Assembly: GCA_965208905.1 (NCBI GenBank)
Contig: OZ242365.1
Coordinates: 960,001 to 1,024,000, forward strand
Source of the DNA: Nitrosopumilaceae archaeon
GTDB lineage: Archaea > Thermoproteota > Nitrososphaeria > Nitrososphaerales > Nitrosopumilaceae
Length of the DNA stretch: 64,000 nt
Reading direction: 5' to 3'
The notes beneath the pieces were generated by a model, which saw only the letters and a program-made list of their open reading frames with translations, searched no databases and had not been told where the DNA came from. A program made the position numbers and the translations under genes. Positions 12,848-60,585 of the stretch are shown piece by piece. Every line of letters begins with the position of its first letter. Position 1 is the first letter of the stretch.

Positions 12848-13755
12848 TTAATCCATACTATCAAATTATTCTAGGGTGGTTAAAGGGTTGGCGTGAAGTG
12901 GCTGCGCACACCATTACAAAATCAAAGATATCAACGAGATATCAGCAGAAATTGAATTCGTTTCATCTTTGGTACCACACATCTACACTTACCACATATG
13001 TAATCACCATCTTCCAGTATAGGTTCGCCCATGGTCGATAACGCGTAGTTACATGTCGGTTCTGTAGGTGTCACATGATTGTTGGTAGATGCTTTATGGC
13101 CTGCTGGCTTTTGGTTGCCAGTTGTGGATACCGTCTCTGTCGGCCCAATATCTGACTGGCATCTTTGCCGATACACGTATGCCTCTCTGCCAGGCTCGGG
13201 CCTTTGCCAGATTGCGTATGTTATTTAAAGTCCATACTGGCCAAGATGAGTAGTTTCAAAAGAATCAGGTACACCATACAAAATGACCAGATTCTGGTCA
13301 GCAACACCAATTCGCAAGAGTACATCACGCAAGACAAATGAAGTACGTAATTTATCTGATCCTCCGCGTTTGTCCGAGAACCGGTGTCTTGCCAGTGGTG
13401 GTTATACCAGTCGAGCCGGCCACTATGATGTGTACCTTGTCACCTGTCATCTTAATTGTGATGCAGTTGCCCTTTATAGAGACGGTCTGGGCGCAGGCCA
13501 GCCTCCATAGGGTTATTGTGGTCGGAGCCTTTTCCACCTTGCCCAGCATCTCATCTGCCATTCTTTTGTTATGCGCATACCCTTACCGATCATCCACCGT
13601 GTGTATGCAATGCTGCCCATCAGCAGGTCTGAGTATGCGTATGGTCAACCCCTCTTGGAGCAGTCCATCTCATCCATCTGACTGCCCGTAGGGATCTATG
13701 ATGCCGACCCGTAGTCGGGAGGCATGCAAATTATGAAACGCTATCATGAAATCTA

Positions 13756-15269
13756 GGTTCCTACTGCAAGCACGGGGGCTCCCGCACCTACAATACATTA
13801 CACGTCACACCAGAGGACGACGGTGTATAGAGCATCTCGTTCCCCGGTCTGTGCTTGACGTTTCTCAGGGGAGCTGATGCAAGAACCCTCCACGTCCAGA
13901 CGCCCCTTAACATGGGTGCTGCCGGTATTGTCCGGCAAGTTTCGTAAGTTTAGTTGGCCATGCCTAGCCCCCGGGCCAAGTTTCTTCAGCCCCACATCCT
14001 CTATGTTTGAGCCCGCATTACAGTCGGCATGATACGTGTAGCCACACTTCTTACACAAGAACCGTCTACCATCCCGGTTGTCCTTATGTGTATAACCGCA
14101 CGAGTAGCACCGTTGGCTTGTATACGCTGCAGCAACCCAAATTATTTCGCCAGTCAACTTGTACGCCAACAGTAATGCCAACAGCCCCCAGCACTGCTCC
14201 AGAATGGCCTTATTGAGACCAGATTTCTGCGCAACGTTTTTGCCGGGTTTTTCTTCCGTACCCTTGGCGGACTTTGCCATGTTTTGTATAGGAAGTTTCT
14301 CAAAGGCGGCATGTGTGGTGCTGTCCGATATAACGCGTGATATTTTATGCGCGGTGGTCTTTCGAATATTTGCAGCTTTGCGTTTGTTCTTGGCAGCCCT
14401 CTTGGCAGCTTTGGCCCACCGTCGGGAGCCGGGCTTACGATTTACACAGTCGGGTTTCTGCCTGCGTGATGCTATCTTTTGTGCCTTAGAGGCTGTTTTT
14501 TCGGCGTTGTTCATGCGGCGTGTCATCTTTTCGGGTACCATTATTACACAGTCAGGTGTGGCCACATTACCAACATTCCGGTCTATACCAATAACAGTCT
14601 GTTCGGTCACGGTTGGCTTCTCATCGGGTATATCACAGGATATGGTAATCCTCCACCCGCCATCCGGTAGTTGAAATAGTTGTGCCGTCTTGTATCGGTA
14701 ATTCAAGACGGGAAACTCCCGCGACAGTTTAACCTCGCCCATCTTGGCTATCTTGATTGTACGTGTATCAGTGAAGCGCGCTTGACCAGTAGTGCCATCA
14801 TGCGTTATCGTCAACGGGATGGAGATGTGACCTCCATATTTCTTAAAGTGCGGTTCACCAAATTCCGCCTTAGGTTTGATGTTGACAGCCTTCAGCCTCT
14901 CTGTTTTCACATATTGGTCATAATGCCTGCCCAAGTCATGTAATATTTGGCGCGTCACCCCGGATATGGACTGACGCATCCAACGCGGACCCGAATGGCT
15001 GCGCAAGTCCGTATACCACGCGCTTATCCTACCACGCGTAGTGTTGACCCTCCCGGTTCGACGGTACTCTTCCTTGAAGGTTTCTAACAGTTTGTTATAC
15101 ACGTACCTGTCCATGCCGGCCTGTCTGGCTAACATCTCCTTCTTGAACCCTTTACGAAATCTAACGCCGAATGTGTATGTGCGTAGTACCATTAGCGTAC
15201 AGTACGGTCTACATGTTTAAAAAGATAGTTGAGATGTGATATATGGCACCCATCCTTGCGGGAGGAACC
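13756..15269 (-). mobile_element. TIR/TSD-bounded tnpB element A
   Basis: TIRs GGTTCCTACTGCAAG (13756-13770) and CTTGCGGGAGGAACC (15255-15269), 13/15 match; flanks GAAATCTA (13748-13755) and GAAATCTG (15270-15277). Confidence 0.85.
13798..15192 (-). CDS. tnpB: TnpB RNA-guided endonuclease
   Basis: HTH N-terminus (RYVYN), RuvC-I GIDRN, RuvC-II FEKL, YTSQRC..C/C..C zinc finger, RuvC-III HADCNA..NI. Confidence 0.95.
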   Translation of the reverse strand: MVLRTYTFGVRFRKGFKKEMLARQAGMDRYVYNKLLETFKEEYRRTGRVNTTRGRISAWYTDLRSHSGPRWMRQSISGVTRQILHDLGRHYDQYVKTERLKAVNIKPKAEFGEPHFKKYGGHISIPLTITHDGTTGQARFTDTRTIKIAKMGEVKLSREFPVLNYRYKTAQLFQLPDGGWRITISCDIPDEKPTVTEQTVIGIDRNVGNVATPDCVIMVPEKMTRRMNNAEKTASKAQKIASRRQKPDCVNRKPGSRRWAKAAKRAAKNKRKAANIRKTTAHKISRVISDSTTHAAFEKLPIQNMAKSAKGTEEKPGKNVAQKSGLNKAILEQCWGLLALLLAYKLTGEIIWVAAAYTSQRCYSCGYTHKDNRDGRRFLCKKCGYTYHADCNAGSNIEDVGLKKLGPGARHGQLNLRNLPDNTGSTHVKGRLDVEGSCISSPEKRQAQTGERDALYTVVLWCDV

Positions 15270-15302
15270 GAAATCTGAAACATTAAAAATTAGGCGTTAT
15301 AC

Positions 15303-18365: not shown

Positions 18366-18855
18366 TACGGCGTCTCTGTATTATGAGATATACTGCTGAT
18401 GCGATCATGCCCACTACTCCGACCAACAACATGTATGATGCAAACAATCCCAAGGATGTGGCCACTTCATCAGGTTCAGGCCCTATCACTGCTGTTACCG
18501 ATACTGGATTTAAGTCGGTCTCTATTACCAGTGTGTATTCATGCGTCTCATCCACTGGGAATCTCTCTTCGTATACGCTCTCATCTATTGTGGCAGATGT
18601 GGTTACTGCCCGCAGTGGTCCTAGGACGGTCGCCTTGACGCTCATCCCTTCGGTGTGATCCATAATCTCTACGGCGTATACGCCACCTGCCCCCCTTTCG
18701 ATTTCAGCAGTTATCTCTAGTGGCACGCCTACCTCTACCATGCCTGTACCTACACTGAGATCATCAAATATCATGCTACTTGAAAATGTGCCTATGCCCA
18801 GTCCAGCAGCCAGTAGTGCAGCCATACTTAGTAGTAGTATAGTGGGTTTTTGCAT
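18337..18855 (-). CDS. Membrane-anchored hypothetical protein
   Basis: N- and C-terminal hydrophobic segments. Confidence 0.75.
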   Translation of the reverse strand: MQKPTILLLSMAALLAAGLGIGTFSSSMIFDDLSVGTGMVEVGVPLEITAEIERGAGGVYAVEIMDHTEGMSVKATVLGPLRAVTTSATIDESVYEERFPVDETHEYTLVIETDLNPVSVTAVIGPEPDEVATSLGLFASYMLLVGVVGMIASAVYLIIQRRRINSGNYPSL

Positions 18856-19091
18856 AATATCTGAATTTTATGCTGGCATGATTAAAACTTATGCTATTAC
18901 ATGTCATATCATTTCAAAAGTCATATATGTTGCAACAATTAGCAGTATACTAAAAACAACAATTATCACACGGCAGCAGTTCCAAATACGATTGTAATAA
19001 CGTTTACAGGCCGTGTGATTGTACATGTAAAGTAGATGATTGGACATAAATTATGCAAAACTTCCCCTAAAGGTCGTTATGGAATGTAATC

Positions 19092-20753
19092 ATGTCTATT
19101 GTAGACTCTAACTCGAATTTAATTCCGGTAAGGATGTTGACACAATTTGTATACTGCCCTCGCTTGGCTTACTTGGAATGGGTACAGGGCGAGTTTGCGT
19201 ATTCAGCCGATGTGGTTATGGGTACACAAAAACACAAGAATGTTGATACGCCGGCCAAAAAAAGCATGGATGAAAAGCAAGACACAATACATGCAAAGTC
19301 AATACTTGTTTCAGATGAAAAACTTGGTATTATAGCCAAAATAGATATCATGGATATACAGGGAAATGTGGCGATGCCAATAGAGTACAAACGTGGCAAA
19401 GTTCCAGAAAATTCTGCAAAGGCATGGGAAGATCATATGATACAGCTGTGCGCACAGGGGCTCTTGCTGCGTAAGCACAACTATATGTGTACAGAAGGTG
19501 TGATATATTATGTGGCATCTAAACAGCGCATTACAATAAAATTTGATGATATTCTTGTTGCCAAGACGCTGCAAGCAATACATGATATAAAAGAGATGAT
19601 ACAGCAACAAAAGATCCCCCCACCACTGGTGAATTCTCCTAAATGTCCACGATGTTCTCTGGTGGGTATATGCCTGCCGGATGAGACCAGTTTATTGATG
19701 CCGGGCGTACCGACTGTACGCAAAGACCAAGTACGTAGATTATATCCAATTCGAAATGATGCAGTTCCAGTATATGTTCAGGAGCAAGGAGCCTACGTGT
19801 CCCTATCTGGTGATAATATTGTAGTAAAAAGACAGAGTGGAGATAAACAAAAGATTCGATTAATTGACATATCTGCGCTAGTATTATTTGGAAATGTACA
19901 GGCAAGCACTCAGGCGATACGGACTTTATGTAATCGAGGTATACCAATATGCTACCTTAGTTATGGTGGATGGTTTTACGGACTAACTACTGGCTCTACA
20001 AGCCGAAATGTGGACTTGCGCATACACCAACATAACACCTACAAGAGCAAGTCACTTCTTTTGAATATTGCTCGTGAAATTGTGTCAGGCAAAATTAAAA
20101 ATTGCGCAACACTACTTAGACGTAATGGGAAGCCACAACCAAAATCAGTCTTAGATGAAATGTGTACACTTGCACAAAAATCAAAAACTGCTAAAAACTA
20201 CAATACGCTCTTGGGTTTGGAGGGGCTGGCGGCACGTCTGTACTTTGGAGCATTTCAGACAATGCTGCGAGGCGATATGAATACTTTTTACTTTCAGGAA
20301 CGAAATCGACGGCCGCCCAAGGATCCTGTAAATACAATATTGTCTTTTTTGTACGCTCTGCTGACACGTGAAATGACCACTACTGTATCTCTGGTGGGCT
20401 TTGATGTGTATTTGGGGTTTTTGCACACGCCCCACCATGGGCGGCCCTCACTTGCTCTGGACTTAATTGAAGAATTTCGACCCTTAATAGCAGATTCGGT
20501 ATGTATTTCAATAATAAATAATGGCGTGGTGTCAAAGTCAGATTTTATAATTACACCATTTGGTGTAAATTTGAACGCAGATGGGCGGCGCAAGGTAATT
20601 GAGGCATTTGAAAACAGGTTAAATTCAACAATTCATCATAAATTACTTGGATATTCTGCCAGTTATAGACGAATAATGGAGACGCAAGCCAGGCTTTTAG
20701 CGCGACACATATCTGGTGAAATCCCTGCATATCCGCCCTTCAGGACCCGCTAA
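19092..20753 (+). CDS. cas4-cas1: Cas4-Cas1 fusion
   Basis: YCPR, KID, EYKRG, QLCAQ, C..CSL...C (Cas4); GLEG..AR.YF, RNRRPPKDPVN, LALDLIEEFRP (Cas1). Confidence 0.97.
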   Translation: MSIVDSNSNLIPVRMLTQFVYCPRLAYLEWVQGEFAYSADVVMGTQKHKNVDTPAKKSMDEKQDTIHAKSILVSDEKLGIIAKIDIMDIQGNVAMPIEYKRGKVPENSAKAWEDHMIQLCAQGLLLRKHNYMCTEGVIYYVASKQRITIKFDDILVAKTLQAIHDIKEMIQQQKIPPPLVNSPKCPRCSLVGICLPDETSLLMPGVPTVRKDQVRRLYPIRNDAVPVYVQEQGAYVSLSGDNIVVKRQSGDKQKIRLIDISALVLFGNVQASTQAIRTLCNRGIPICYLSYGGWFYGLTTGSTSRNVDLRIHQHNTYKSKSLLLNIAREIVSGKIKNCATLLRRNGKPQPKSVLDEMCTLAQKSKTAKNYNTLLGLEGLAARLYFGAFQTMLRGDMNTFYFQERNRRPPKDPVNTILSFLYALLTREMTTTVSLVGFDVYLGFLHTPHHGRPSLALDLIEEFRPLIADSVCISIINNGVVSKSDFIITPFGVNLNADGRRKVIEAFENRLNSTIHHKLLGYSASYRRIMETQARLLARHISGEIPAYPPFRTR

Positions 20754-20754
20754 C

Positions 20755-21217: not shown

Positions 21218-24200
21218 ATTTCCGAGACATTTTTGTCTCGGCCCCATTGAAGCTTAAAAAAAAAGTTAGTTTGTTTGTGTGTGTGTATGATTTCCGAGAC
21301 ATTTTTGTCTCGGCCCCATTGAAGCATTCCGGAATCGACGGTAGTTCCGGTATCGGAGCGAATTTCCGAGACATTTTTGTCTCGGCCCCATTGAAGCTTT
21401 ACCGTTTAACGAAATAACGAAATAACGAAAAGTATTTCCGAGACATTTTTGTCTCGGCCCCATTGAAGCCAGATGGCCATAGACAAATACTATGCGGACA
21501 AGCACGATTTCCGAGACATTTTTGTCTCGGCCCCATTGAAGCCCGGCCAAGAACAGGAACGTTTTGGGATTACGCAGACATTTCCGAGACATTTTTGTCT
21601 CGGCCCCATTGAAGCGCCGCCGGGAGCAACGTACGGGAGGCGAGCGTCTAATGATTTCCGAGACATTTTTGTCTCGGCCCCATTGAAGCGTTTTAGCATG
21701 CCAACGAAAATACATACTGGTAGCGCCATTTCCGAGACATTTTTGTCTCGGCCCCATTGAAGCCGGGCCGCTATGGTCTCTATGGTGTACTTTTGCAAAG
21801 ATTTCCGAGACATTTTTGTCTCGGCCCCATTGAAGCCTGGAGGACTCGGAGCCGTACGCGCCGCTGCCGTAGCATTTCCGAGACATTTTTGTCTCGGCCC
21901 CATTGAAGCGCGGTGCGGTTTTATTATCGTCTGGCCCCGATACCAATTTCCGAGACATTTTTGTCTCGGCCCCATTGAAGCTAAAGTCGAGCCATACACG
22001 TAACATGTATGGTCAGAATTTCCGAGACATTTTTGTCTCGGCCCCATTGAAGCATATACCAAGGAATAAGGGTGTATATGGAAAAAACACAATTTCCGAG
22101 ACATTTTTGTCTCGGCCCCATTGAAGCGGTGCTGCAGACTATGTATGCTTATGGTCTGAAGTCCATTTCCGAGACATTTTTGTCTCGGCCCCATTGAAGC
22201 GCGGCGATGAATCGTTGCCCTTTGTGTTTTGGCAAATTTCCGAGACATTTTTGTCTCGGCCCCATTGAAGCAAGGGTCGGTTGGAAGATTACCGTTATGC
22301 TCCTGAATTTCCGAGACATTTTTGTCTCGGCCCCATTGAAGCAACAGGTAGGATTAAGATTATACGGTTTGATCGAAGATTTCCGAGACATTTTTGTCTC
22401 GGCCCCATTGAAGCCCTAGACCGGTTGACAACCCAAGCCCCTTTGATATATTTCCGAGACATTTTTGTCTCGGCCCCATTGAAGCGTGCCACCTTTATCG
22501 GGGAATATGACGCCCAGTAAATTTCCGAGACATTTTTGTCTCGGCCCCATTGAAGCTTACGTTGTCGCAAAAGGGATCGAGGCATTACACAAGATTTCCG
22601 AGACATTTTTGTCTCGGCCCCATTGAAGCCAGGCTTAACCGATTCCCAAATTGCGAAAGTCGTTGCAAATTTCCGAGACATTTTTGTCTCGGCCCCATTG
22701 AAGCGTGCCGATGAATCGTTGCCCTTTGTGTTTTGGAATCTGATTTCCGAGACATTTTTGTCTCGGCCCCATTGAAGCTCGCAAATGTCAAGATTGTTAG
22801 GCATCTAAGGACGCATTTCCGAGACATTTTTGTCTCGGCCCCATTGAAGCTCCCATCAGATATGATTTGACCACAAGTGGTAAAGCCGATTTCCGAGACA
22901 TTTTTGTCTCGGCCCCATTGAAGCACCCGTTGCACTTGTAAACATCTGTCTCTTAGCCGCATTTCCGAGACATTTTTGTCTCGGCCCCATTGAAGCATCG
23001 CCCATTAAACTATATCCCTCTGGTAGTGTGGGCATTTCCGAGACATTTTTGTCTCGGCCCCATTGAAGCAGGATTCATCAATCATATACAGGACGGTACT
23101 ATTGATATTTCCGAGACATTTTTGTCTCGGCCCCATTGAAGCATTCGCGACCTGGCTAACTTGTCCAACTGTGCGCGGTATTTCCGAGACATTTTTGTCT
23201 CGGCCCCATTGAAGCTTAGAATCGGGCAAAAAAGACAGTGTGTATGACAGAGATTTCCGAGACATTTTTGTCTCGGCCCCATTGAAGCGAAGGCCGTGGA
23301 CCTGGGCACCGCATGGGAGGACTACATTTCCGAGACATTTTTGTCTCGGCCCCATTGAAGCAACGAGGCGTCGGTGTCCATCACGGCCGGGACGAACGGA
23401 TTTCCGAGACATTTTTGTCTCGGCCCCATTGAAGCGAGCAGCGCCTTATGCGTCCACTGGGCCATACGGTTTATTTCCGAGACATTTTTGTCTCGGCCCC
23501 ATTGAAGCTGGACCATTTTATCACCTCATATTATGCCCGTATGGTATTTCCGAGACATTTTTGTCTCGGCCCCATTGAAGCAGAAAGTGAGTATTGTTAC
23601 ATCAAGCGATTAAAGCCATTTCCGAGACATTTTTGTCTCGGCCCCATTGAAGCCAAAGTGCCTTAGCCCCATAGTTTGCTGTGTGCGTATAGCATTTCCG
23701 AGACATTTTTGTCTCGGCCCCATTGAAGCATATCTGTGTATATGTGGGTTCAGATGCGGTCTTAATATTTCCGAGACATTTTTGTCTCGGCCCCATTGAA
23801 GCGTGTATGTTATGAGTACGGGCAAGAGTCGGGAGACATATTTCCGAGACATTTTTGTCTCGGCCCCATTGAAGCTATGAGTCCGGTGTTGGTCGGTATC
23901 TGCTTTACTACAATTTCCGAGACATTTTTGTCTCGGCCCCATTGAAGCCGGAGTTATGTCGCCAGCGAAATAAACCCCGACTATATTTCCGAGACATTTT
24001 TGTCTCGGCCCCATTGAAGCAATGTGGTTATGTCTGCGCCTGGTTGCAAGTCTTCAATTTCCGAGACATTTTTGTCTCGGCCCCATTGAAGCTGTGCTTT
24101 CTGATTGTGTTGGCTGTTGGCCCGGATAATTTCCGAGACATTTTTGTCTCGGCCCCATTGAAGCAGAGACTGTTATGAAAGGCAATAGTGAAGCAATGGA

Positions 24201-27200
24201 GATTTCCGAGACATTTTTGTCTCGGCCCCATTGAAGCTACACGGCATCATACATCAGTTCCACCTTGGACTTGATTTCCGAGACATTTTTGTCTCGGCCC
24301 CATTGAAGCCCAGGCCTAAACTTGTATCCGTGCCACCATCCAGTATTTCCGAGACATTTTTGTCTCGGCCCCATTGAAGCGAGAGTTTGAAGCAGATAGT
24401 AGACATGACATCGGCAATTTCCGAGACATTTTTGTCTCGGCCCCATTGAAGCTAGTAAAAGTACGGTCTAATCTTTATGCCGTTTCGTAATTTCCGAGAC
24501 ATTTTTGTCTCGGCCCCATTGAAGCCGAAAATACCATTTGCGAATGATCTACTTCATTCTTCCATTTCCGAGACATTTTTGTCTCGGCCCCATTGAAGCA
24601 CGCAAGTTATGTATACGTTTGCCGAAAAGGTACAAATTTCCGAGACATTTTTGTCTCGGCCCCATTGAAGCGGACCACAAGGGCCAAAAGGTGATCAAGG
24701 CGATGTTGATTTCCGAGACATTTTTGTCTCGGCCCCATTGAAGCTAACTGGTACCACCCCATACAATGGTGTGCAGAATGCATTTCCGAGACATTTTTGT
24801 CTCGGCCCCATTGAAGCGAGCAGTCGCCGAGTGAATCGTTGCCCAGCACCTGAGATTTCCGAGACATTTTTGTCTCGGCCCCATTGAAGCAATGCACGCT
24901 GGCAAGGGCCATCATACAAGGAAATGCATTTCCGAGACATTTTTGTCTCGGCCCCATTGAAGCAGGTACAATAATACGACCATCTATGATCGCGATGCTC
25001 ATTTCCGAGACATTTTTGTCTCGGCCCCATTGAAGCCGGTACAAAGCGGCATGTCGTCACAACCGACAGGAAATTTCCGAGACATTTTTGTCTCGGCCCC
25101 ATTGAAGCTCTAGGGGGACTAGTTTATCGTGAATCCACTTACCCTTATTTCCGAGACATTTTTGTCTCGGCCCCATTGAAGCAAAATTACTTTGCATGTC
25201 CTGCACCAATGCTTTTTGTGCATTTCCGAGACATTTTTGTCTCGGCCCCATTGAAGCAAAGAAGTACCTAGTCCCCTTAGGCCGGCATTCCCAGATTTCC
25301 GAGACATTTTTGTCTCGGCCCCATTGAAGCTCCGTTATGTATATGGTCGGCCAAGAGGTCCACTCATAATTTCCGAGACATTTTTGTCTCGGCCCCATTG
25401 AAGCTCTGGAGTACATGCAGTACAGTTTCGTTTTATTTTGATTTCCGAGACATTTTTGTCTCGGCCCCATTGAAGCGAAGCAAAGCGACGTCGAGGCCAC
25501 ATAATCGGTGTCATTTCCGAGACATTTTTGTCTCGGCCCCATTGAAGCAGGGCCGAAAAGGGGGGTTCTGGGGTGATATTTGGGGATTTCCGAGACATTT
25601 TTGTCTCGGCCCCATTGAAGCATACAGCGGCCTAACGCATAGACCGGGTGGTATGACGATTTCCGAGACATTTTTGTCTCGGCCCCATTGAAGCCTGTCC
25701 TCGCCAAACTCACCATTGCGCCATTTGCGCATTTCCGAGACATTTTTGTCTCGGCCCCATTGAAGCGAGTTGTTCGCCGGCCGTCTCGGCACACGCAACA
25801 CCATTTCCGAGACATTTTTGTCTCGGCCCCATTGAAGCTCGTTAACAGTTGTGCCTGCAGTATGCGCAGGATTTGCCATTTCCGAGACATTTTTGTCTCG
25901 GCCCCATTGAAGCAGCAATTCCGTACAGGCCACGCAAACGGTAATCAAAATTTCCGAGACATTTTTGTCTCGGCCCCATTGAAGCGACACACCCGAATAC
26001 GGCAAGACCAGCGTCGTATTACAATTTCCGAGACATTTTTGTCTCGGCCCCATTGAAGCACAAGGGAGGGATCTGCCCAGCACGGGGCACCCCCCATTTC
26101 CGAGACATTTTTGTCTCGGCCCCATTGAAGCTTCGCTGAGTTGGTTGGGACTGGGCAATGCTACACATTTCCGAGACATTTTTGTCTCGGCCCCATTGAA
26201 GCCAAACAAGAATCGTATGTCTTCATGGTCGTACTCGGATTTCCGAGACATTTTTGTCTCGGCCCCATTGAAGCCCCAATATGCCGCCCGCCTTTAGTGT
26301 GCGGGCCTCGAATTTCCGAGACATTTTTGTCTCGGCCCCATTGAAGCAATCGACTGCGTAATATGCGCCGAGTACAGTCTGAATTTCCGAGACATTTTTG
26401 TCTCGGCCCCATTGAAGCTAACTGCAATCGAAGCGACACCAAACAGGGACGAATGATTTCCGAGACATTTTTGTCTCGGCCCCATTGAAGCTATGGTCCC
26501 ACTCGGTTACATCCAGCCGCCTTGTATCATTTCCGAGACATTTTTGTCTCGGCCCCATTGAAGCAACAAGGAATGTACACTGGTGTTATCTAGTTCCACA
26601 TTTCCGAGACATTTTTGTCTCGGCCCCATTGAAGCTTGTAAACTCACTGTTGATAGCGAGAGAGTGAGACTCATTTCCGAGACATTTTTGTCTCGGCCCC
26701 ATTGAAGCTCCGTGATACATGATGAATAGCCGTACTGTTTCCACATTTCCGAGACATTTTTGTCTCGGCCCCATTGAAGCTGCTCAAAGACGTCTTGTAA
26801 TACATTCCGCTAGCGTAATTTCCGAGACATTTTTGTCTCGGCCCCATTGAAGCTTATCCCGATTTGCACCCTGAAATTCCAACGCTATTATTTCCGAGAC
26901 ATTTTTGTCTCGGCCCCATTGAAGCTGGGACGTGTCCGCTACTACCTCACCATTCGGGCCTAATTTCCGAGACATTTTTGTCTCGGCCCCATTGAAGCAC
27001 CGCAGCCACACGGAAATCATACTGTGAGCCATTAGATTTCCGAGACATTTTTGTCTCGGCCCCATTGAAGCAGAACCGTGTCTAGGTTGGTTTCACTTTG
27101 TTGCATGATTTCCGAGACATTTTTGTCTCGGCCCCATTGAAGCATCAACCAAGCCGGCTGTTGTTGCTACTGTTGTTGCGATTTCCGAGACATTTTTGTC

Positions 27201-30200
27201 TCGGCCCCATTGAAGCTATCCCAGTCCGTATATTGTATAACAAGGTCCATATTTCCGAGACATTTTTGTCTCGGCCCCATTGAAGCACTCCCGAAGTGGC
27301 AGGTCAAGCATACACAGAACGAACAATTTCCGAGACATTTTTGTCTCGGCCCCATTGAAGCGGTAATACAACCACAACCACTCAGGTTGTCGCCAAAAAT
27401 TTCCGAGACATTTTTGTCTCGGCCCCATTGAAGCTAATCATGCGGCCCTGTAGTTCGCCGGGGTATTCTATTTCCGAGACATTTTTGTCTCGGCCCCATT
27501 GAAGCTTCAAACTTCGGATGAACTCCGCCAAAGTCATAATATTTCCGAGACATTTTTGTCTCGGCCCCATTGAAGCTGAGAACTCTTAGAGATCTTTGTT
27601 TCTATTCCACATCATTTCCGAGACATTTTTGTCTCGGCCCCATTGAAGCTATAACTCTCTAGTCTCTGGCCATACTTTATCTATAATTTCCGAGACATTT
27701 TTGTCTCGGCCCCATTGAAGCCCAACCTACGTTGAGCAAAGTCTTTCAAGTTTGCAGGATTTCCGAGACATTTTTGTCTCGGCCCCATTGAAGCTAAACG
27801 TTTCACCGTATCCAATCGCGGGGTTGTGCGATTTCCGAGACATTTTTGTCTCGGCCCCATTGAAGCAAGCCGGCCCGCGAAATCATAGACAGTGTAATCC
27901 CATTTCCGAGACATTTTTGTCTCGGCCCCATTGAAGCATTTTGTACGTCTGTACAATCTACATAAGCGATCTCTATTTCCGAGACATTTTTGTCTCGGCC
28001 CCATTGAAGCGTATATTGCGGGGTTTGCCTAAAATGAGCATGGGTTATTTCCGAGACATTTTTGTCTCGGCCCCATTGAAGCAATCCGTAGGGGGGAAAA
28101 TACCTAAAAGCGGTCTGTTTATTTCCGAGACATTTTTGTCTCGGCCCCATTGAAGCATAGATCATTCTGGCACCCTCATAACAGGTAAAAAATTTCCGAG
28201 ACATTTTTGTCTCGGCCCCATTGAAGCCTCGCTGTTAAGAATTCTTCAAATTCCGTACTACTAATTTCCGAGACATTTTTGTCTCGGCCCCATTGAAGCT
28301 TTCAGATAGTGTCTCAAATGCACTTTCCATCGCAAATTTCCGAGACATTTTTGTCTCGGCCCCATTGAAGCACCGCTCTGAGAGTTCTGAGAACCCCAAT
28401 AGTATTTTATTTCCGAGACATTTTTGTCTCGGCCCCATTGAAGCATATGTCCGTGGGGCCGGTGGCGCGCCAGACGAATATATTTCCGAGACATTTTTGT
28501 CTCGGCCCCATTGAAGCACCCATTTTGTTAGATTGTTTACCTTCCGTTCTACGATTTCCGAGACATTTTTGTCTCGGCCCCATTGAAGCAGGGACATGGT
28601 GGCGATGGTTCGACATGCCGAGTCCGGATTTCCGAGACATTTTTGTCTCGGCCCCATTGAAGCCGCTAATCTTTTTTCCACGCAACATTTTTTAACAATA
28701 TTTCCGAGACATTTTTGTCTCGGCCCCATTGAAGCAAGTAACCATCATGGAGGACGTGCAATGAAGGACAAATTTCCGAGACATTTTTGTCTCGGCCCCA
28801 TTGAAGCGGCGATGATACAGACGATTGGGTAAAACGTCTTGTAATTTCCGAGACATTTTTGTCTCGGCCCCATTGAAGCGTTAGATGATTTTAGATTTTG
28901 GGTAGTGGTGATTGTATTTCCGAGACATTTTTGTCTCGGCCCCATTGAAGCAATTGCAAGTTTTATCAATGCGACACTTTGTGTAAATGATTTCCGAGAC
29001 ATTTTTGTCTCGGCCCCATTGAAGCGAACATTGCAGTGATAATGAACTTATGGCTTATTGCATAATTTCCGAGACATTTTTGTCTCGGCCCCATTGAAGC
29101 CCTTAATTCGGGAATTATATGCCAAATCAAACGTAAAATTTCCGAGACATTTTTGTCTCGGCCCCATTGAAGCTTAAGTCGCAGTTTGGAGTATGCCCTA
29201 TCCATTCGCATTTCCGAGACATTTTTGTCTCGGCCCCATTGAAGCAGAATGGTCAACGAACCGAGTCGTTGAGGAAGTAGCATTTCCGAGACATTTTTGT
29301 CTCGGCCCCATTGAAGCAGATATTGTACCATGTTCTTATCCGCCTGCTCACTGCATTTCCGAGACATTTTTGTCTCGGCCCCATTGAAGCTTACCAACAT
29401 ACATGGACTTTGGGCGCAACTTTACAATTTCCGAGACATTTTTGTCTCGGCCCCATTGAAGCCACCCGTAAGTTTAAAGATATTGTCTGCAAGTGCCTAT
29501 TTCCGAGACATTTTTGTCTCGGCCCCATTGAAGCCCTGCAGAGATTTGTTAGTTGCAGTGTGGCATCACCATTTCCGAGACATTTTTGTCTCGGCCCCAT
29601 TGAAGCAACGTTGCTAGATTAATCATCAGCCTGGTACGCAACATTTCCGAGACATTTTTGTCTCGGCCCCATTGAAGCTTATTATGACTCTTAAGCACAA
29701 ATGTACACACGAACATTTCCGAGACATTTTTGTCTCGGCCCCATTGAAGCTTTAGAGCCCATAGCCCGATGAACCCTGCGGAGGGATATTTCCGAGACAT
29801 TTTTGTCTCGGCCCCATTGAAGCGATGTGTCTTAAGCCGGCATCGCGCAGGTCCGTCTCGTTATTTCCGAGACATTTTTGTCTCGGCCCCATTGAAGCGT
29901 GGCAAGCTGGCCATTACGGCCGACATACCGCGGGACATTTCCGAGACATTTTTGTCTCGGCCCCATTGAAGCTTGCGGTTTACCCAGAACAGAACCTACG
30001 TATTCTTTATTTCCGAGACATTTTTGTCTCGGCCCCATTGAAGCGTTTGGTTATGTTGACGCCGGCCCGCTTTTTGACTTTATTTCCGAGACATTTTTGT
30101 CTCGGCCCCATTGAAGCGATGTGTCTTAAGCCGGCATCGCGCAGGTCCGTCTCGTTATTTCCGAGACATTTTTGTCTCGGCCCCATTGAAGCGTGGCAAG

Positions 30201-33974: not shown

Positions 33975-33975
33975 C

Positions 33976-35016: not shown

Positions 35017-35025
35017 TAACTGCAA

Positions 35026-37345: not shown

Positions 37346-37367
37346 AAATTTAGCCTAGGCTAAATTT
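37346..37367. promoter_or_regulatory. Perfect 22-bp palindrome, DtxR/MntR-family-like operator
   Basis: AAATTTAGCCTAGGCTAAATTT abutting TATA-like TTTATA upstream of the multicopper oxidase-ZIP operon. Confidence 0.7.
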
Positions 37368-37396
37368 TATATACCCATACACCACACACAGAATCA

Positions 37397-40124: not shown

Positions 40125-40175
40125 CTGGCATAGAATCATGTTTTAATTATATCATATAATCACGTATAGTATAAC

Positions 40176-43658: not shown

Positions 43659-43680
43659 TACGCTGATATCGATAAACATA

Positions 43681-52125: not shown

Positions 52126-52127
52126 TG

Positions 52128-53521: not shown

Positions 53522-55098
53522 GGTGATTATGCAGAAGCCTAATGACGGCAAACACCGGCTTGCATTATCCGACCATCGGATTCAATGACGCATGTCTGTT
53601 CGGATCAATCCGGCCATCCCTTCCTCCAACCCCTTCGGAGCTTATGCGATCAAACCAAAGTACTTTACTTTAAATATTCGTAATTGCCCATATAGGTATG
53701 TCCACAATAACACGCACAATACATGTGGCGCACAACAACGGGCAACTCCTGGGAGGTCTTCTGCACTACATACTCGCCGCGTCCAACGGTACCGCCAAGG
53801 CACTCCGTAGGGGCGTGCGGGGCAAGGAACTGAGGCGCAGGGCGGTACACCACACACGTGTGTATCAAACACGCTTTGCCGACTACATTGTATTGGATGT
53901 ATTTGGAAGTCACAAGGCATGGCGTACAAAGCAATTGACGGATAAACATGCCCGCGCGCCGCACTTTCGTAATCCGGTGGCGCAGACCGACATATTTGAG
54001 TTGGCATTTGATGATACATCAAAACGGTGGAACGGCACGCCGTCAATCCATGTAGCAGTATATGGAACGGGTCGGCAGAATAGGTCGTGGATGGTATTTC
54101 CGGTACCGCCATATGTCGTAAATGAGCTTGGCAGGCCAAACAGGACACCCAAAACCGTATCCATAAACAGGGATGAGATATTCATCACGTATCGGGAAAA
54201 TGTGCAGGATAGTAAAGCCGTAATGTGGGCAGGTGTGGATATGAATGCAAAGAACAACGCGTATTCATTCACTGATGGTACGGTAACTATTGTGGGCAAC
54301 CGAAATGGGAGTGAGTACAACAGGGCGTGTAGCAGGATATTGAAGGTGAGGCGGCGGAACGATGACCGCATCATGACAAAGTATACGGGAAAGGCATGGA
54401 AAACATACGGGAACCGCATACGCAATGATGTACATGTGGAGGCCAAAAGGTTGGCCAATGCGCGGTGTGTCGTAGGGTTTGAGACGCTGAACATCCACAA
54501 TCTGTACAACAAAAATGGTAAAATGTCGCCATATGTCCGCGGCAAGACGAAAGCGACGCTGAATACCGGCCAGAGGCAGGCTGCCCTCAAGAACGCGGCA
54601 GAGTCCGCGGGGCTACCAAGTGTGGGCGTTGAGCCGCGCAACACGTCTGCCAAATGCCACAAGTGTGGCGGAAGACTGGCGTTTCACAGTAAACGGAGCG
54701 GCGAGGTGCCGCTGCGCAACATGCGCTGCGGGGGTGTGTGCAGGGCAATGCGGGAGAGGGATGCCAACGCCAGCACCAACATATTATTGCTTACAATACG
54801 GAAATTAATGGGTGATTCTGTCGTTTCGACTGGAACCATCACGACGTCCGAGCTGCTGCAACTACTCAAAGTGGTGGTTGCCAATCGCACAGTCCCGCAT
54901 CGTAAGAAATTAATCGACATCATGCGGCTCTTAGAGGGTCGTAGCGCAAACACCTTGTGGTGTTTGTCGGGGGCGCACAAACCAAAACACCGTAATTACG
55001 TCGACGGTGACTCCATGGGTGTATTTGGGGTGGGCGATGCCGGCCGGAACGGTCCGGGGCCGCCCAATGCTGCCAAGTTGTGATTATGCATAATCTCT
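53522..55098 (+). mobile_element. Probable TIR/TSD-bounded tnpB element D (degenerate ends)
   Basis: Left end GGTGATTATGCAGAA (53522-53536) versus right-end reverse complement AGAGATTATGCATAA (55084-55098), 12/15; flanks ATTACATA and AATAAATA, 6/8. Confidence 0.6.
53698..55083 (+). CDS. tnpB: Divergent TnpB/Cas12f-like RNA-guided nuclease
   Basis: RuvC-I GVDMN, RuvC-II FETL, RNTSAKCHKCG..C...C, RuvC-III ERDANASTNI; about 100-aa C-terminal extension. Confidence 0.88.
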   Translation: MSTITRTIHVAHNNGQLLGGLLHYILAASNGTAKALRRGVRGKELRRRAVHHTRVYQTRFADYIVLDVFGSHKAWRTKQLTDKHARAPHFRNPVAQTDIFELAFDDTSKRWNGTPSIHVAVYGTGRQNRSWMVFPVPPYVVNELGRPNRTPKTVSINRDEIFITYRENVQDSKAVMWAGVDMNAKNNAYSFTDGTVTIVGNRNGSEYNRACSRILKVRRRNDDRIMTKYTGKAWKTYGNRIRNDVHVEAKRLANARCVVGFETLNIHNLYNKNGKMSPYVRGKTKATLNTGQRQAALKNAAESAGLPSVGVEPRNTSAKCHKCGGRLAFHSKRSGEVPLRNMRCGGVCRAMRERDANASTNILLLTIRKLMGDSVVSTGTITTSELLQLLKVVVANRTVPHRKKLIDIMRLLEGRSANTLWCLSGAHKPKHRNYVDGDSMGVFGVGDAGRNGPGPPNAAKL

Positions 55099-55128
55099 AA
55101 TAAATATGGTAAGAGTCTTGTTGCCATA

Positions 55129-56034
55129 ATGAAGTCTATGGAGGCATATATCAAAGATCTAAAACAACAGTATGTAGAGATTGGAGATTTTACAGCGCCG
55201 CCACCGCTATCAGATACACAGATGGCAGATGCGATATTCACAGGTAGTGGAGACTCGTTGGCGGCGGCCATGTTGGCCGAAGCGTTATCAAATTATACAG
55301 CCAAAGCAGTAGACCCTTTGGAGATACTATACAATCCACAGATTGTACAAAACAAGAGATTGTATGTAATATCCGTATCTGGCAGAACAATAACCAACAT
55401 ACGACTGGCTCAAAGATATACAAGTAATCACATTACTGCCATAACCACCAATACTGGTAGCGAGCTGGCATTACTGGCAGACGACATAATTGAGTTAAAG
55501 TTTCCCAGCTCAGACATACTGACTGCAGGCAGCATCAGTTTTTTGAATAGTGCTCTTGTGTGCATGTCTTTGGTGCGTCCCATAATTTTAGATGATGCAG
55601 TAAATATAATGAACCAGGCCAAAAGAGATGCAGGTACAATACACCAGAGGGGACGTACATTCTTTGTAGGCAATCAGTATACGTTTCCAGTAGCCATGTA
55701 TGCGGCTGCCAAAAGTTATGAAATACGTGGCAGATACGCAAACTACTCCCGGGCAGAACAGTTCGCCCACATGGAGTTGTTCTCGATAAAAAGCAGTGAC
55801 ACAGTCATACTATTTGATGAACTAAATTCCCGTACACGCTCTTTAGCAGAGTCATTAGAGTCTGAGGGAGTACAATGTGTAGTGACAAACCCCAATCTTT
55901 CAGAGCATGTAGAGTCCATACTGTATCATGTGTCTTATGCGCAGCATCTGCCGCTAAACGATATAGAGCAGGACGAGGTATACTTTATGAGGGAAGATAC
56001 ACTCAGAGGCATCAGTGATGAGGCCATCTATTGA
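55129..56034 (+). CDS. SIS-domain sugar isomerase-like protein
   Basis: FTGSGDS, ISVSGRT, EQFAHMELF. Confidence 0.85.
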   Translation: MKSMEAYIKDLKQQYVEIGDFTAPPPLSDTQMADAIFTGSGDSLAAAMLAEALSNYTAKAVDPLEILYNPQIVQNKRLYVISVSGRTITNIRLAQRYTSNHITAITTNTGSELALLADDIIELKFPSSDILTAGSISFLNSALVCMSLVRPIILDDAVNIMNQAKRDAGTIHQRGRTFFVGNQYTFPVAMYAAAKSYEIRGRYANYSRAEQFAHMELFSIKSSDTVILFDELNSRTRSLAESLESEGVQCVVTNPNLSEHVESILYHVSYAQHLPLNDIEQDEVYFMREDTLRGISDEAIY

Positions 56035-56393
56035 TTGTGAGGAAGTTTATTCAACGCATCAGTAACACTTGATAGGCACCATCGAATATCATCCGCATCC
56101 TGATCAGATATATTATTATCCCATCTCTCCAGTGTGATACGGACGGCCTCTGCCAAGCCACTTAAAAGTCGCCAATATGGATGGTGTTCAGCCACAGTAT
56201 ACGTCATCTCTTCAATGTGGCGCAGACCATATATGGCCTCTTTCAATGAGGAGACATCAGTACCATATATGGTAAATATGTCAGCGTCCGCATATTTAGA
56301 GGACCTAACAGTCGCGCAAGATCTGTCCAGCTGTTCTTTTACACGTACGCATGTATCATCAAAGTTATTCAATGTATAATGTGATGTGTACAT
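56028..56393 (-). CDS. Hypothetical protein
   Basis: 121-aa ORF, HHPYW motif. Confidence 0.7.
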   Translation of the reverse strand: MYTSHYTLNNFDDTCVRVKEQLDRSCATVRSSKYADADIFTIYGTDVSSLKEAIYGLRHIEEMTYTVAEHHPYWRLLSGLAEAVRITLERWDNNISDQDADDIRWCLSSVTDALNKLPHNQ

Positions 56394-56599
56394 CTAGGAG
56401 TATATTTTGTTTGCAGTACAAATCAAAGTCCACTACAACAGACATAGTCACCCTAAACGATACAAAGGCTGTGATACAAAATTATAATGAATTTGTATAT
56501 TATGATCGCTCATCTGTTGAGTGTTGGGGGTAAGTGAAGCCCCGCACCAAGCAGGTATAGTCGAAAAAGATCTGTATTGGTAGATCCCTCCATACCTCC

Positions 56600-57262
56600 A
56601 TGGCGTGTAGCGAGATGCAAAAACAAAAAGAATCCGGCCCCCTGTTGCTCCTGCTGGCATTGTTTGTCGATATGGCGGCTACAGCCGAGCTGTTCAGGAC
56701 GGTCCGGTGGGCCAACGGCCTGTTCTGCCCGCGTTGCGGCGGGGTTGATATCGTCTGGTACTGCCGATACCATGGATACGTCCGGAGGCACACATGCAAG
56801 GGCTGCCGCCGGACCTTCAACTACAAGACCGGAACTATTCTTCACTACCGGCATGTCCGGATGGGAGACTGGATGCTAGCGGTCTGAATGTTCCTGTGCG
56901 GGCAGCCCAACGGGATATCGCTAAACTACATTGCAACTTCGATAGGCCGCGCCTACGGGGCCGTCTGCCAGATGTACCGCGACATCATGCGGAAGGTGGG
57001 CGAGCTGCCGGAGGGCAAGCTGTCCGGGACGGGAGAGACCGATGAGGGATACACCAGGGCCGACTCCAAGGGGGTGTCACTGGGCAGCAACGGCGAGAAC
57101 CGGACTGTTCCCAGCCGCCGCCGGCTGCCCCGCGGTCCGGGGAGGGGCACCTTCGAGAAGAACACGCCGATGGTTACCATCTTGACAGTAACCAGAGTAT
57201 ACGCTTTAAGTCTTCGATTTTATAGTCTGCCAGATAGTCTGACCCCTGCTTTACCTGTATAG
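56600..57262 (+). pseudogene. IS1595-family DDE transposase pseudogene
   Basis: RWANGLFCPRCG...CKGCRRTFNYKTGT zinc ribbon, in-frame TGA at 56885-56887, LSG..ETDEGY first catalytic Asp, GRGT; truncated near 57180; GC-rich. Confidence 0.88.
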
Positions 57263-58729: not shown

Positions 58730-58801
58730 ATGCATATGATCATCTGACGTAAACTACATTAGTACAATATATGGTATATTGGGAGTTGTTTATGATGCAA
58801 C

Positions 58802-60516
58802 GGGTGTGTCCCACAGGTAAATATCCAAAAACAGTGAATGGTGTATGCCAATAACGGGAATCAAATATTAAATAGTAAAACATAGTATAGTACTCTATAA
58901 AAAGACGATGTGGTGACACCGTAGCAGTATCAATGCCACACGGCAAGGTGTACAATCCTGCAAAATTCCGTGAACTAACAGGGTCTCGCAGACCACCCAA
59001 ATACGACCCAGATGATATACTGGCATCCGCTTTACAATATGCAGTACACAAGACCGGCCTGGGGTATCATCTGTGGTCTGAGTTCATCAGGGATTTTCCA
59101 AAAGTGCGGGAAGCGTATAGTGGTGGAGAATTAAAAGAGTATGATGCCGGGGTTAAGAAGATATACAGATTGCTCAAGCACCGTGATAATAAATACATGG
59201 CGCAGTTCGCGTTAACTATGAAAGATGAGTGTGAGGCTAAAGTGCGTGCATACTGTATAAGACGTGCGCAAGACCCCAACGCGCGGCGGCCAAAATGCAC
59301 CAACCCAATACTGCGGCAGAATGCTGGGTCTTGTAGGATATATGGTCAAGGTTTTCGATGTAGGTTATCTGACGCACCGAATAAACCACTACATTCATCA
59401 CCATACGTGGTACTGCGATTTCCAATAATCCCACATAAACATACCATGGAGGTACAACTCACGCCCTACATGGTGGAAAAACTAGCTACTGCCGTAAGTG
59501 TGGGGGCCGTTACCGTGACAGATAAGACCATATCTATAGCATATGAGCCGCAACCCATCACACCAGTACAACCCAAAGGTATCACAGGTATGGATGTCAA
59601 CAAAGTACAGCATGTTACGGCTGACACTAACGGGAGTGTAGAGCGTGTTCCAAATATGGCGCTTGAAGCCGCTCAGACACGACGGCAGAAACTCGCGAAT
59701 TTAGGAGTAACTGGCGGCAAACCGAAGAGTAAACAATCCCAAAAACCAAAGAAGCGTACTCTGCCAAAGCACGTCAAACACGTAGGCCGTAGGCCGAAGA
59801 ATAAAAAGCGTCATGATGAACGTGTGAGTCGTTGTGAACGCGCCCACATAAACACCAGATACAACAATCAAAAGAAGGACTGGTTGTTCAAATTAATGCA
59901 TGGGTTGGCTTCCCTGGGCTTTGTGTTGGCGTTGGAGGAGCCAACCATCGACAGGATGATGAAAAAGAGTAACAAGAATATGTCAAACGAGACGCGCGAC
60001 TTGTTGAAGATGGGGCTGAGTCAGGGTATAATATGGGCGGTGGCTAAAAGCGTATACGGAAAGCATGGTCTTCCCGTGATTGGTGTTGTTGCCAAAGGTA
60101 CTAGTTCTACATGTCCCACATGTAATGGAAAGTTATGGGAGCCAGAGTACGGCATGAAAATATGGAAAAAGTGGAGGCGTATTAAGGGGTGTGGGGTTTG
60201 TTTATATCATATCGACAGGGATGATGTCGCAGCCATCAATATTGTACGGCGCGGCATCCTCAAGTATTGTAAACCGGCAGCCGATTCTAATCGGTGGGTG
60301 GCCGGGGATTGGGAGCAGTTGGTCCAACCATTATTGGACCATACGGTCTTGTGGTTTCCGCAGGACCGTGAAGGGCGGCATCCTAAAGGGGAGGTGATGA
60401 ACTCAATGAGTGATGATTTACCATCCCTGGACGACCACCTGGATGTATCCAATTGTGCTGCTGGTGTAGCGCTGCCGGAGGAGACTCCGGTGGCTTTATA
60501 CTAGTGGGACACACCC
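58802..60516 (+). mobile_element. TIR/TSD-bounded tnpB element E
   Basis: Perfect 13-bp TIRs GGGTGTGTCCCAC (58802-58814) and GTGGGACACACCC (60504-60516); perfect 9-bp TSD TGATGCAAC (58793-58801, 60517-60525). Confidence 0.93.
58933..60504 (+). CDS. tnpB: Divergent TnpB/Cas12f-like RNA-guided nuclease (523 aa)
   Basis: RuvC-I GMDVN, RuvC-II LEEP, GTSSTCPTC..CGVC, RuvC-III DRDDVAAINI; Lys/Arg-rich insert; stop codon abuts the TIR. Confidence 0.88.
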   Translation: MPHGKVYNPAKFRELTGSRRPPKYDPDDILASALQYAVHKTGLGYHLWSEFIRDFPKVREAYSGGELKEYDAGVKKIYRLLKHRDNKYMAQFALTMKDECEAKVRAYCIRRAQDPNARRPKCTNPILRQNAGSCRIYGQGFRCRLSDAPNKPLHSSPYVVLRFPIIPHKHTMEVQLTPYMVEKLATAVSVGAVTVTDKTISIAYEPQPITPVQPKGITGMDVNKVQHVTADTNGSVERVPNMALEAAQTRRQKLANLGVTGGKPKSKQSQKPKKRTLPKHVKHVGRRPKNKKRHDERVSRCERAHINTRYNNQKKDWLFKLMHGLASLGFVLALEEPTIDRMMKKSNKNMSNETRDLLKMGLSQGIIWAVAKSVYGKHGLPVIGVVAKGTSSTCPTCNGKLWEPEYGMKIWKKWRRIKGCGVCLYHIDRDDVAAINIVRRGILKYCKPAADSNRWVAGDWEQLVQPLLDHTVLWFPQDREGRHPKGEVMNSMSDDLPSLDDHLDVSNCAAGVALPEETPVALY

Positions 60517-60585
60517 TGATGCAACTCTGACTATTAAAGGCCCCCGCATTGGGTGTTTGTTATGATATGATATGATATGGTACAT

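Follow-up and report, generated by a model that had tools for sequence, protein, structure and literature searches.

The stretch of DNA analyzed here (the window, 64,000 nucleotides, G000:C1:960001-1024000) belongs to the single-contig genome of a Nitrosopumilaceae archaeon, the genome under study (G000; 2,214,775 bp, 99.6% complete). It carries five elements, A to E, each built around a gene for the RNA-guided nuclease TnpB or, in B, around a remnant of such a gene. Elements A, B, C, and E lie between terminal inverted repeats (TIRs) and are flanked by target-site duplications (TSDs), and no transposase is encoded within any of the five. We propose that these elements are quite probably tnpB-only derivatives of DDE insertion sequences (ISs) that are moved in trans. 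In the following, the right end (RE) is the element end toward which tnpB reads, and the left end (LE) is the opposite one. Positions are those of the window unless they are given for a genome. The relatives named below are G005, which is a sister species, the congeners G001, G002, G004, G006, G007, and G009, and G038 from another genus of the same family.

Ends, duplications, and empty sites of the window elements

Element A (13756-15269, minus strand) is an IS6-type element of 1514 bp with tnpB at 13798-15192 on the minus strand. Its TIRs (RE, 13756-13775; LE, 15250-15269) start with GGTTCCT, match over these positions (7/7), and are imperfect thereafter. The two flanks read GAAATCT[A/G] and agree at 7/8 positions. 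The RE-side TSD copy (13748-13755, GAAATCTA) is, on the tnpB strand, the start of the presumed guide. The LE-side copy (15270-15277, GAAATCTG) is followed at 15278-15280 by TTT on the tnpB strand, in a position like that of a target-adjacent motif (TAM). Element B (39540-40124, plus strand) is a 585-bp deletion derivative whose parent is a 1616-bp IS6-type tnpB family. It retains both TIRs (GGTTCCTCCCGCAA, 14/14), the 3′ RNA region, and a broken remnant of the TNB domain, matched at 39765-39944 with 85% identity to residues 383-484 of the TnpB of the 1616-bp family and interrupted by stops. The TSD of B (39532-39539 on the LE side and 40125-40132) is CTGGCATA (8/8), preceded by ATA at 39529-39531. 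Since A and B are without a DDE transposase gene of their own, they are non-autonomous.

Element C (42221-43658, minus strand) is an IS1595-type non-autonomous element of 1438 bp, with tnpB at 42235-43563 on the minus strand. It starts with GGGAATTAT, and its TIR, GGGA[A/C]TTATC, matches at 9/10 positions; the TSD at 42213-42220 and 43659-43666 is TACGCTGA (8/8). Element E (58802-60516, plus strand) is an IS5-type non-autonomous element of 1715 bp, with tnpB at 58933-60504 and the TIR GGGTGTGTCCCAC (13/13). Its TSD, TGATGCAAC (9/9), lies at 58793-58801 and 60517-60525 and is preceded by TTA at 58790-58792.

Empty sites were searched for in 20 relatives. In G005, the host DNA around the elements is 94-97% identical to that of G000, and the flanks of A, B, C, and E are contiguous, overlapping by 7, 8, 8, and 9 bp, respectively, which corresponds to a single TSD copy. 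The duplications of A, B, C, and E arise on insertion. The empty site of A in G005 reads GAAATCTG once, which means that the left copy of A mutated after insertion.

Elements A, C, D, and E each have a long open reading frame (ORF) that matches PF07282, the TNB domain of TnpB. The TnpB of A also passes PF01385 (OrfB_IS605) and PF12323 (HTH_OrfB); that of C passes PF12323 and scores 29.6 bits against PF01385, just below the Pfam cut-off of 30.5. In A and B, tnpB is the sole long ORF. A preliminary description of the window had placed inverted repeats at the ends of A, B, C, and E, had counted their direct repeats as 7/8, 8/8, 8/8, and 9/9, and had reported neither tnpA nor any other transposase inside. 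The ends and flanking repeats were located where it had put them, the ORFs bear out the lack of a transposase, and the collapse to one TSD copy that it expected of empty alleles is seen in G005 for all four elements.

Genome-wide pattern

PF07282 gave 77 matches in G000, of which the 74 that reached the family cut-off were used as tnpB loci and three weak ones were dropped. The preliminary description had suggested scoring the flanks of every tnpB gene in the genome. We did so by a census in which end motifs derived from G000 itself were applied to the 74 loci. TIRs of 12-34 nt were present at both ends of 66/74 loci, and a TSD was present as well at 50/74. By class, the pairs comprise IS6 (23), IS1595 (26), a second IS6-like motif group (10), and the IS5 types of E (IS5_E, 2) and D (IS5_D, 5); an 8-bp TSD was found at 17/23 IS6-class loci. 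The TSD sequences are all different, indicating independent insertions. A blind finder, which required 12-nt ends matching at 10/12 positions or more and an 8-9 bp flanking repeat with no more than one mismatch, detected 40/74 tnpB loci (30 with an exact TSD) and 43/740 random loci of G000 (10 exact); this control is inflated, because random loci can fall on real IS elements and 412 kb of the genome is repeated. A TSD also flanks derivatives whose tnpB is not intact, namely B, with its empty site in G005, and one of 496 bp. Derivatives that resemble miniature transposable elements with inverted repeats (MITEs) and have the same TIRs measure 189-641 bp.

The placement of tnpB was examined in 61 elements of 1300-1800 bp, and 51 of these contain an ORF that reaches 400 aa or more. 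In the 51 elements, the tnpB stop lies at a median distance from the RE of 5 nt for IS1595-type and D-type elements, 12-13.5 nt for E-type elements and for the second IS6-like group, and 26 nt for IS6-type elements (5-42 nt in intact copies); the median distance from the tnpB start to the LE was 66-131 nt. With the stop so near the RE, the TIR overlaps or abuts the ORF, and separate inner ends would not fit. There is no space for a second gene in any of the 61 elements or in any element of the window. In G000, there was no match to PF01797 (Y1 TnpA) or PF00239 (serine recombinase); control searches with these two profiles matched in 6 and 12 of 14 named genomes, respectively.

Elements of this kind are shared within the genus: tnpB elements with TSDs, of IS6, IS5, or IS1595 type, are present in G001, G002, G005, G006, G007, and G009. 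One profile, built from the TnpBs of six families (those of A, C, D, and E, the 1616-bp family, and the main IS1595-type family), matched 2/121 sampled genomes of the phylum (G000 and G038) at E ≤ 1e-30, a strict threshold, so that the negative holds only for the genomes searched. In G038, all of the loci examined (4/4, of 6 returned) had GGGAATTATATAC-type (IS1595-type) TIRs, with one visible 8-bp TSD. A search of genome contigs with the TnpB of the 1616-bp family yielded one locus only, in a Cenarchaeum sp. metagenome-assembled genome, and a search of plasmids with the TnpB of E yielded two distant matches only.

DDE insertion sequences with the same ends

The ends of A and B (GGTTCCTCCCGCAAAGACGGGTG) also bound intact ISs of 1442-1482 bp in the congeners G009 and G004. 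These ISs have the same terminal 14-23 nt as A and B, 8-bp TSDs, and an ORF of 388-396 aa that matches PF13610 (IS6 family), and the TIR start GGTTCCTCCCGCAA is common to them and to A and B. One TIR class can carry very different nucleases: the TnpBs of A and of the 1616-bp family are only 18% identical. The sole IS of G000 with A/B-type TIRs is a degraded copy (G000, 926302-927837) with a frameshifted transposase remnant. At G000:C1:924780-927837, a family-A tnpB element lies 8 bp from this degraded IS6 element, which has the same TIRs. Since TTAAACTC is found on both sides of the pair, the tnpB element and the IS6 remnant moved as one composite unit.

Thirteen intact IS6-like transposase genes, 355-498 aa in length, are present in G000 (e.g., 18770-20032, 1100943-1102328, and 2145558-2146679 of the genome). 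Most are 50-88% identical to one another, with one outlier near 40%, and some have SWIM or zinc-ribbon N-termini. Several have an end-like sequence on one side only, and a tnpB TIR type cannot be assigned to them. These transposases may be the enzymes that act in trans. Other IS6-like transposons were also observed. Two identical copies of 3602 bp (G000:C1:1337692-1341293 and 1851328-1854929; TIRs 24/24) carry a DNA methylase (PF01555) and a NotI-like restriction enzyme (PF12183). They are direct copies with swapped 8-bp flanks (GTCCGTTG / AAAATAAC), as in an unresolved cointegrate, and one of them has a tandem duplication of its 354-bp end. In G005, a 3.8-kb repeat (L063-L065; G005:C1:836400-846400 and two copies) combines an IS6-like transposase with a 408-aa ORF; a single end-like sequence (GGCAACTGGGAAG) was recognized in it, and a search over 10 kb found no inverted counterpart.

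The C-type start GGGAATTAT opens three IS1595-family elements of G000 (675271-677401, 1211856-1213986, and 1770047-1772736 of the genome), each with an 8-bp TSD. The last one encodes a 319-aa transposase that matches PF12762 (E 2.9e-40); by tblastn, the first two have 316-aa ORFs with 75% identity to this transposase. The most abundant tnpB family of G000 shares these IS1595-type ends with C. The element at 1770047-1772736 has 34-nt TIRs, the TSD CAATTTTA, and a DNA methylase gene that is split in two ORFs, as judged from its motif. Two identical 1639-bp IS1595-type tnpB elements in direct orientation (G000:C1:1455264-1456902 and 2049469-2051107) show a signature of flank exchange: the 8-bp flank TAATTTCC lies to the left of one and to the right of the other, and neither has a TSD of its own.

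The ends of E, GG[G/C]TGTGTCCCAC, bound a 1253-bp IS of G006 with a 9-bp TSD and a PF01609 + DUF772 transposase (IS5), and in G006 E-type ends are found as well on a 315-bp MITE and on tnpB elements of 1784 bp. A further 10 tnpB loci of G000 have ends of the form GGAGCTGTCAAATC, which fit the IS6-family end signature GG / cTGTt / caaa (PMC7986276). An autonomous partner of these 10 loci was not found. Across the types, TSD length (8, 8, 9, and 3 bp) tracks the DDE family and not the TnpB family. The preliminary description had named IS6, IS1595, and IS256 as examples of DDE transposons with TIRs and an 8-9 bp TSD and had called for autonomous elements with the same TIRs. Such elements exist for IS6 (G009 and G004), IS1595 (G000), and IS5 (G006); IS256 is not involved.

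Element D and its family

Element D (53522-55098, plus strand; tnpB 53698-55083) is an IS5/DDE_Tnp_4-type tnpB element. It has an outer end-like sequence at 53522 and an inner left end, homologous to that of its family, at 53637; its TIR match is weak and amounts to end similarity only. Synteny with G005 breaks exactly at 53521/53522 and 55098/55099, matching both boundaries of D. In G005, the DNA that follows D on the right is in inverted orientation, so that there is no empty site for D. The preliminary description had given D a TIR and a 6/8 direct repeat: its boundaries proved exact and its TIR weak, and no TSD was found in the flanks, where the 6/8 repeat is not significant. The inverted segment (55099-56506) has its breakpoints at D and at a 676-bp repeat (56506-57182) with many copies across the genus; copies of this repeat elsewhere in the genome show ~25% identity to an IS1595-like transposase.

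Comparison of four family members defined the end of the D family as the 16-bp TIR AGAGTTTATGCGTAAT with 3-bp flanking repeats. All D-family loci with both ends (5/5) have such repeats, but two of these loci form a duplicated pair, and a repeat of 3 bp is weak as evidence. Ends with AGAGTTTATGCGTAAT also bound a 1585-bp element with a degraded PF13359 (DDE_Tnp_4) ORF (E 3e-10). The remnant partner of D thus appears to be an IS5/Harbinger-like element of the DDE_Tnp_4 type.

The TnpB cargo and the 3′ RNA

The TnpBs of the six families are 18-24% identical to that of A. The RuvC D/E/D residues (D204, E298, and D390) and the four cysteines of the CxxC..CxxC motif are invariant in the six-family alignment. 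The retention of the RuvC residues and the zinc finger, noted earlier for the four full-length TnpBs of the window, therefore extends to two more families. Residues 4-402 of the A TnpB align with ISDra2 TnpB (8bf8 and 8exa; E 2.8e-12), for which we presumed the catalytic residue numbering.

The last 200 nt of six elements of the 1616-bp-like IS6-type family, from four species, were aligned. Their consensus fold has 37 pairs, 16 of which show compensatory changes. Paired cells amounted to 91%, compared with 76% in shuffled alignments (0/500 reached the observed value) and 37-47% when the partners were slid. The 3′ end of this family looks like an omegaRNA scaffold that would end at the RE. When two unrelated IS6-type families were folded jointly, no useful consensus emerged.

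A one-sided motif beside the duplication

Flanks were oriented by tnpB, and the 5′ (LE) side was compared with the mirror position past the RE-side TSD copy. For canonical TnpB, the TAM is located 5′ of the left end, and the DNA past the right end serves as the guide (PMC13565253). Among the IS6-type elements of G000 with an 8-bp TSD (n = 16), T occupies position -2 in 16/16, and the 3-mers before the TSD are TTA (7), TTG (4), ATA (4), and TTT (1); on the mirror RE side, the same 16 elements have 16 different 3-mers. Ten more IS6-type elements from G005, G002, G007, and G009 have TTA (6), TTG (1), or ATA (2), with one exception, so that the pattern is replicated in 9/10. In this cross-species survey, 9/29 loci were without a TIR and TSD call, and two (L116 and L114) were dropped as misplaced or spurious. 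The motif differs between families: G is found at -1 in 13/13 elements of the main IS1595-type family, and A at -1 in 4/6 elements of C's family. The family-specific LE motif resembles a TAM, and the predicted target of the guide would begin with the 8 nt of the TSD. The motif may reflect selection after random insertion, transposase bias, or a role of TnpB in site choice. As a separate observation, the ends of family A have a fixed TIR asymmetry: the side 3′ of tnpB always reads GGTTCCTACTGCAAGCACGG and the other side GGTTCCTCCCGCAAGGACGG (e.g., 13756-13775 and 15250-15269).

Neighboring features

A CRISPR array occupies 21290-30411 of the window (repeat ATTTCCGAGACATTTTTGTCTCGGCCCCATTGAAGC, period 72-73, ~125 units). 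It is followed by six long ORFs (30730-39540), which may be cas genes, and B is inserted directly past the last of them.

Discussion

The best explanation of these observations is a genome-wide population of ~1.4-1.7 kb transposons in which the transposase gene of an IS would have been swapped for tnpB and a 3′ guide-RNA region. The parent families would be IS6 (A and B), IS1595 (C), and two kinds of IS5 (D and E). The elements would have kept the parental TIRs, which DDE transposases encoded elsewhere would bind, inserting the elements with TSDs of 8, 8, 3, and 9 bp, respectively. We consider it highly probable that the elements are mobilized by DDE enzymes in trans. The preliminary description had proposed non-autonomous DDE transposons that carry an apparently active TnpB as their sole cargo and are mobilized in trans; the shared TIRs and the empty sites support this. 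It had also proposed that this arrangement arose repeatedly, and a partner family can now be named for each TIR type. We conclude that tnpB was probably captured at least four times by DDE ISs (IS6, IS1595, and two IS5 types).

Beyond transposition, a structured RNA over the last ~200 nt would run through the TIR into the flank. Because this RNA reads out of the RE, the guide would be the TSD copy together with the adjoining host DNA. Because the LE bases before the TSD are conserved, an unoccupied allele would read motif, TSD, and right flank, that is, a TAM followed by the target. TnpB would cut such empty alleles, and the element would be copied in by recombination; the occupied site would be immune, since there the TIR sits in the place of the TAM. 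RNA-guided cutting and recombinational repair may thus propagate or keep TAM-adjacent insertions. A milder version, in which insertion is random and only TAM-adjacent copies persist via homing, forms part of this explanation. The acting transposase, the production of the RNA, the role of the motif as a TAM, and homing are all matters that we infer. Functional homing by TnpB and omegaRNA, with the motif as its TAM, is the reading toward which we lean somewhat, judging from the sequences at hand.

Several observations weigh against this interpretation. No TSD was found at 24/74 loci and no recognizable TIR pair at 8/74, at least four of these eight being truncated ORFs or carrying stops within their domain match. 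The census applied its motifs to the very genome that supplied them, and two or more of the pair calls (398 and 1944 bp) look spurious. TIR identity with the partners is confined to the terminal 9-23 nt. Of the partners, G000 has an intact one only for the IS1595 type; its IS6 element with TIRs of the A/B type is degraded, and no intact autonomous element with E-type or D-type TIRs was found there, so that A, B, D, and E may be immobile now or may use other paralogues. The 13 IS6-like transposase genes mostly have no recognizable TIR pair or TSD, the exception being the restriction-modification element. The flanks of E-type elements have no clear motif. The RNA structure comes from six sequences, two of them nearly identical, and was scored on its source alignment; no Rfam match at the gathering level was obtained for this RNA, and the window gave two tRNAs only. 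Metatranscriptome contigs from sponge and marine samples represent relatives and cannot show transcription, ends, or strand: the runs hold 8-14% of the sampled words, and the contigs are from related strains. They were not used as evidence, including those that stop exactly at the right end of E (60516) and continue into other flanks. Finally, the flank motif could be a transposase preference. Eight tnpB-less IS6 copies with perfect TSDs, a small control from other genomes (G009 and G004), have TTR (R, purine) on 3/16 sides, where ~0.6 is expected, and T at -2 on 9/16 sides, a signal that is weaker and not one-sided and still above chance.

The last point leads to the strongest rival explanation, which we consider unlikely, although it accounts for part of the data. 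It holds that DDE transposases move the elements in trans, that TnpB is passive or used otherwise, and that the motif stems from target preference, whether the transposase's own or that of ends that are asymmetric, and is not a TAM. The TTR excess beside tnpB-less copies speaks for it, as does the systematic difference between the RE and LE TIRs of family A (TACT for TCCC), by which the two ends are not equivalent. The motif itself behaves otherwise. It varies between TnpB families within one DDE class (in IS1595, G in 13/13 versus A in 4/6), it lies strictly on the side predicted for a TAM with nothing on the mirror side, and it is replicated in four other species. The catalytic residues kept in six families and the RNA covariation also argue for selection on nuclease function.

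A bolder alternative has TnpB, with or without RNA, licensing DDE integration immediately 3′ of the TAM. We regard this as improbable. If it were true, each new copy would be born with a usable guide next to a TAM, and the elements would represent a minimal coupling of nuclease and DDE transposase, resembling CRISPR-associated transposons (CASTs), that evolved independently in several IS families.

It is very improbable that TnpB, with its RuvC/RNase H fold, is itself the transposase and the elements are autonomous. The elements contain no transposase, no intact partner with A/B-, D-, or E-type TIRs is present in G000, and tnpB elements far outnumber their DDE partners, all of which would fit this idea. 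Against it, for every TIR type there is a genuine DDE IS, with a transposase of its own, that has the same TIR and the same TSD length, unrelated TnpBs occur in one TIR class and related TnpBs in different classes, and in one case a tnpB element moved jointly with an IS6 remnant; moreover, IS605 transposition does not need TnpB, which is an RNA-guided nuclease (PMC13565253). Least probable of all, with a chance that we take as close to nil, is simple nesting of IS605/IS1341-type tnpB elements in older DDE MITEs, which the preliminary description had named as the finding that would speak against it: MITE-like derivatives with the same TIRs do exist, but the stop codons adjoin the RE and the starts lie near enough to the LE to leave no room for inner ends, TIRs are present at 66/74 loci, the short derivatives arose from tnpB elements by internal deletion (B retains its TNB remnant), and the genome has no Y1 TnpA that could have inserted them.

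Trans-mobilized, tnpB-only DDE elements would explain how a genome without TnpA comes to have ~74 tnpB genes: DDE ISs carry the nuclease as non-autonomous cargo. The elements would also offer a natural test of TnpB homing alongside TSD-making transposition, in which the TSD would be the TAM-proximal 8 nt of the target and the persisting insertions would lie beside a family-specific motif, and a source of compact TnpBs with possibly short TAMs. For annotation, they are a caution that the label "solo TnpB / IS1341" can conceal other IS families.

Comparison with known systems

IS605 and IS607 elements have neither TIRs nor TSDs (PMC4810608, PMC6188088, PMC13565253), as the preliminary description had also stated for the canonical hosts of tnpB, and IS605 is moved by the Y1 transposase TnpA (PMC4810608, PMC13565253). 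With the IS1341 group of the IS200/IS605 family, the elements described here share the PF07282 TnpB, a gene placed toward one end, the lack of a transposase inside the element, a 3′ structured RNA that would reach the element end, and a short conserved motif at the LE flank. They differ in their TIRs (12-34 nt) and TSDs (3, 8, or 9 bp) and in belonging to a genome without a Y1 or serine TnpA. IS200/IS605 elements have subterminal hairpins in the place of TIRs and are mobilized, in cis or in trans, by a Y1 HUH TnpA, the enzyme of IS607 being a serine TnpA. On the defining features (TIR, TSD, and TnpA), they are not members of IS605 or IS607. In the ISC1316 and IS1341 literature, we found nothing relevant.

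An association of TnpB with DDE transposases has been published. Altae-Tran et al. (2023) described TnpB branches tied to DDE transposases with symmetrical ends and judged the branches DDE-1 to DDE-6 to be mobile; they name IS630, where the transposase and a helix-turn-helix protein are in the same element (PMC10691335). A 2026 review lists ISL2, IS630, and IS1031 as TnpB hosts (PMC13565253). The elements of G000 likewise are prokaryotic TnpBs in DDE-family transposons with symmetrical ends. They differ from DDE-1 to DDE-6, as far as the consulted portions of that paper describe them, in that the hosts are IS6, IS1595, and two IS5 types, tnpB stands alone, and four host families occur in one genome; the type of D may correspond to one of the published DDE-linked types. 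The novelty suggested in the preliminary description accordingly does not extend to DDE-linked TnpB in general (PMC10691335), and nothing was found in print for this lineage. IS6 and IS1595 hosts and a transposase-less high-copy form were not found in print either, and the supplements of PMC10691335 may list them. We found no publication that joins TnpB with IS1595, and none that links the IS6 family with TnpB as judged from titles and abstracts. The interest of the present case is that tnpB-only elements have hosts from four DDE families within a single archaeal genome that has no TnpA, and that a family-specific, one-sided motif, which is new here, lies beside the TSD.

Within the IS6 family, the norm is an 8-bp TSD, and a 2021 review, in the portions available, reports two MITEs and a single transporter IS (tIS) with one hypothetical passenger gene and does not use the word TnpB (PMC7986276). 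The GG-tipped TIRs with a ..GCAAA motif, the 8-bp TSDs, and the derivatives formed by internal deletion are common to those elements and to the ones described here, which differ in having tnpB in the place of the transposase and ~23-33 copies per genome. A parallel lies in eukaryotes. Fanzors are carried by Mariner/Tc1, hAT, MuDR, and other DDE transposons and are likewise RNA-guided nucleases that travel as cargo of transposons with TIRs and TSDs. Their guide RNAs overlap the right TIR, and their TAMs sometimes agree with the insertion sites (PMC10530073). The nucleases described here are, in contrast, prokaryotic and are compact (442-549 aa), canonical TnpBs, and the elements that carry them would be the prokaryotic counterpart of Fanzors in eukaryotic DDE transposons.

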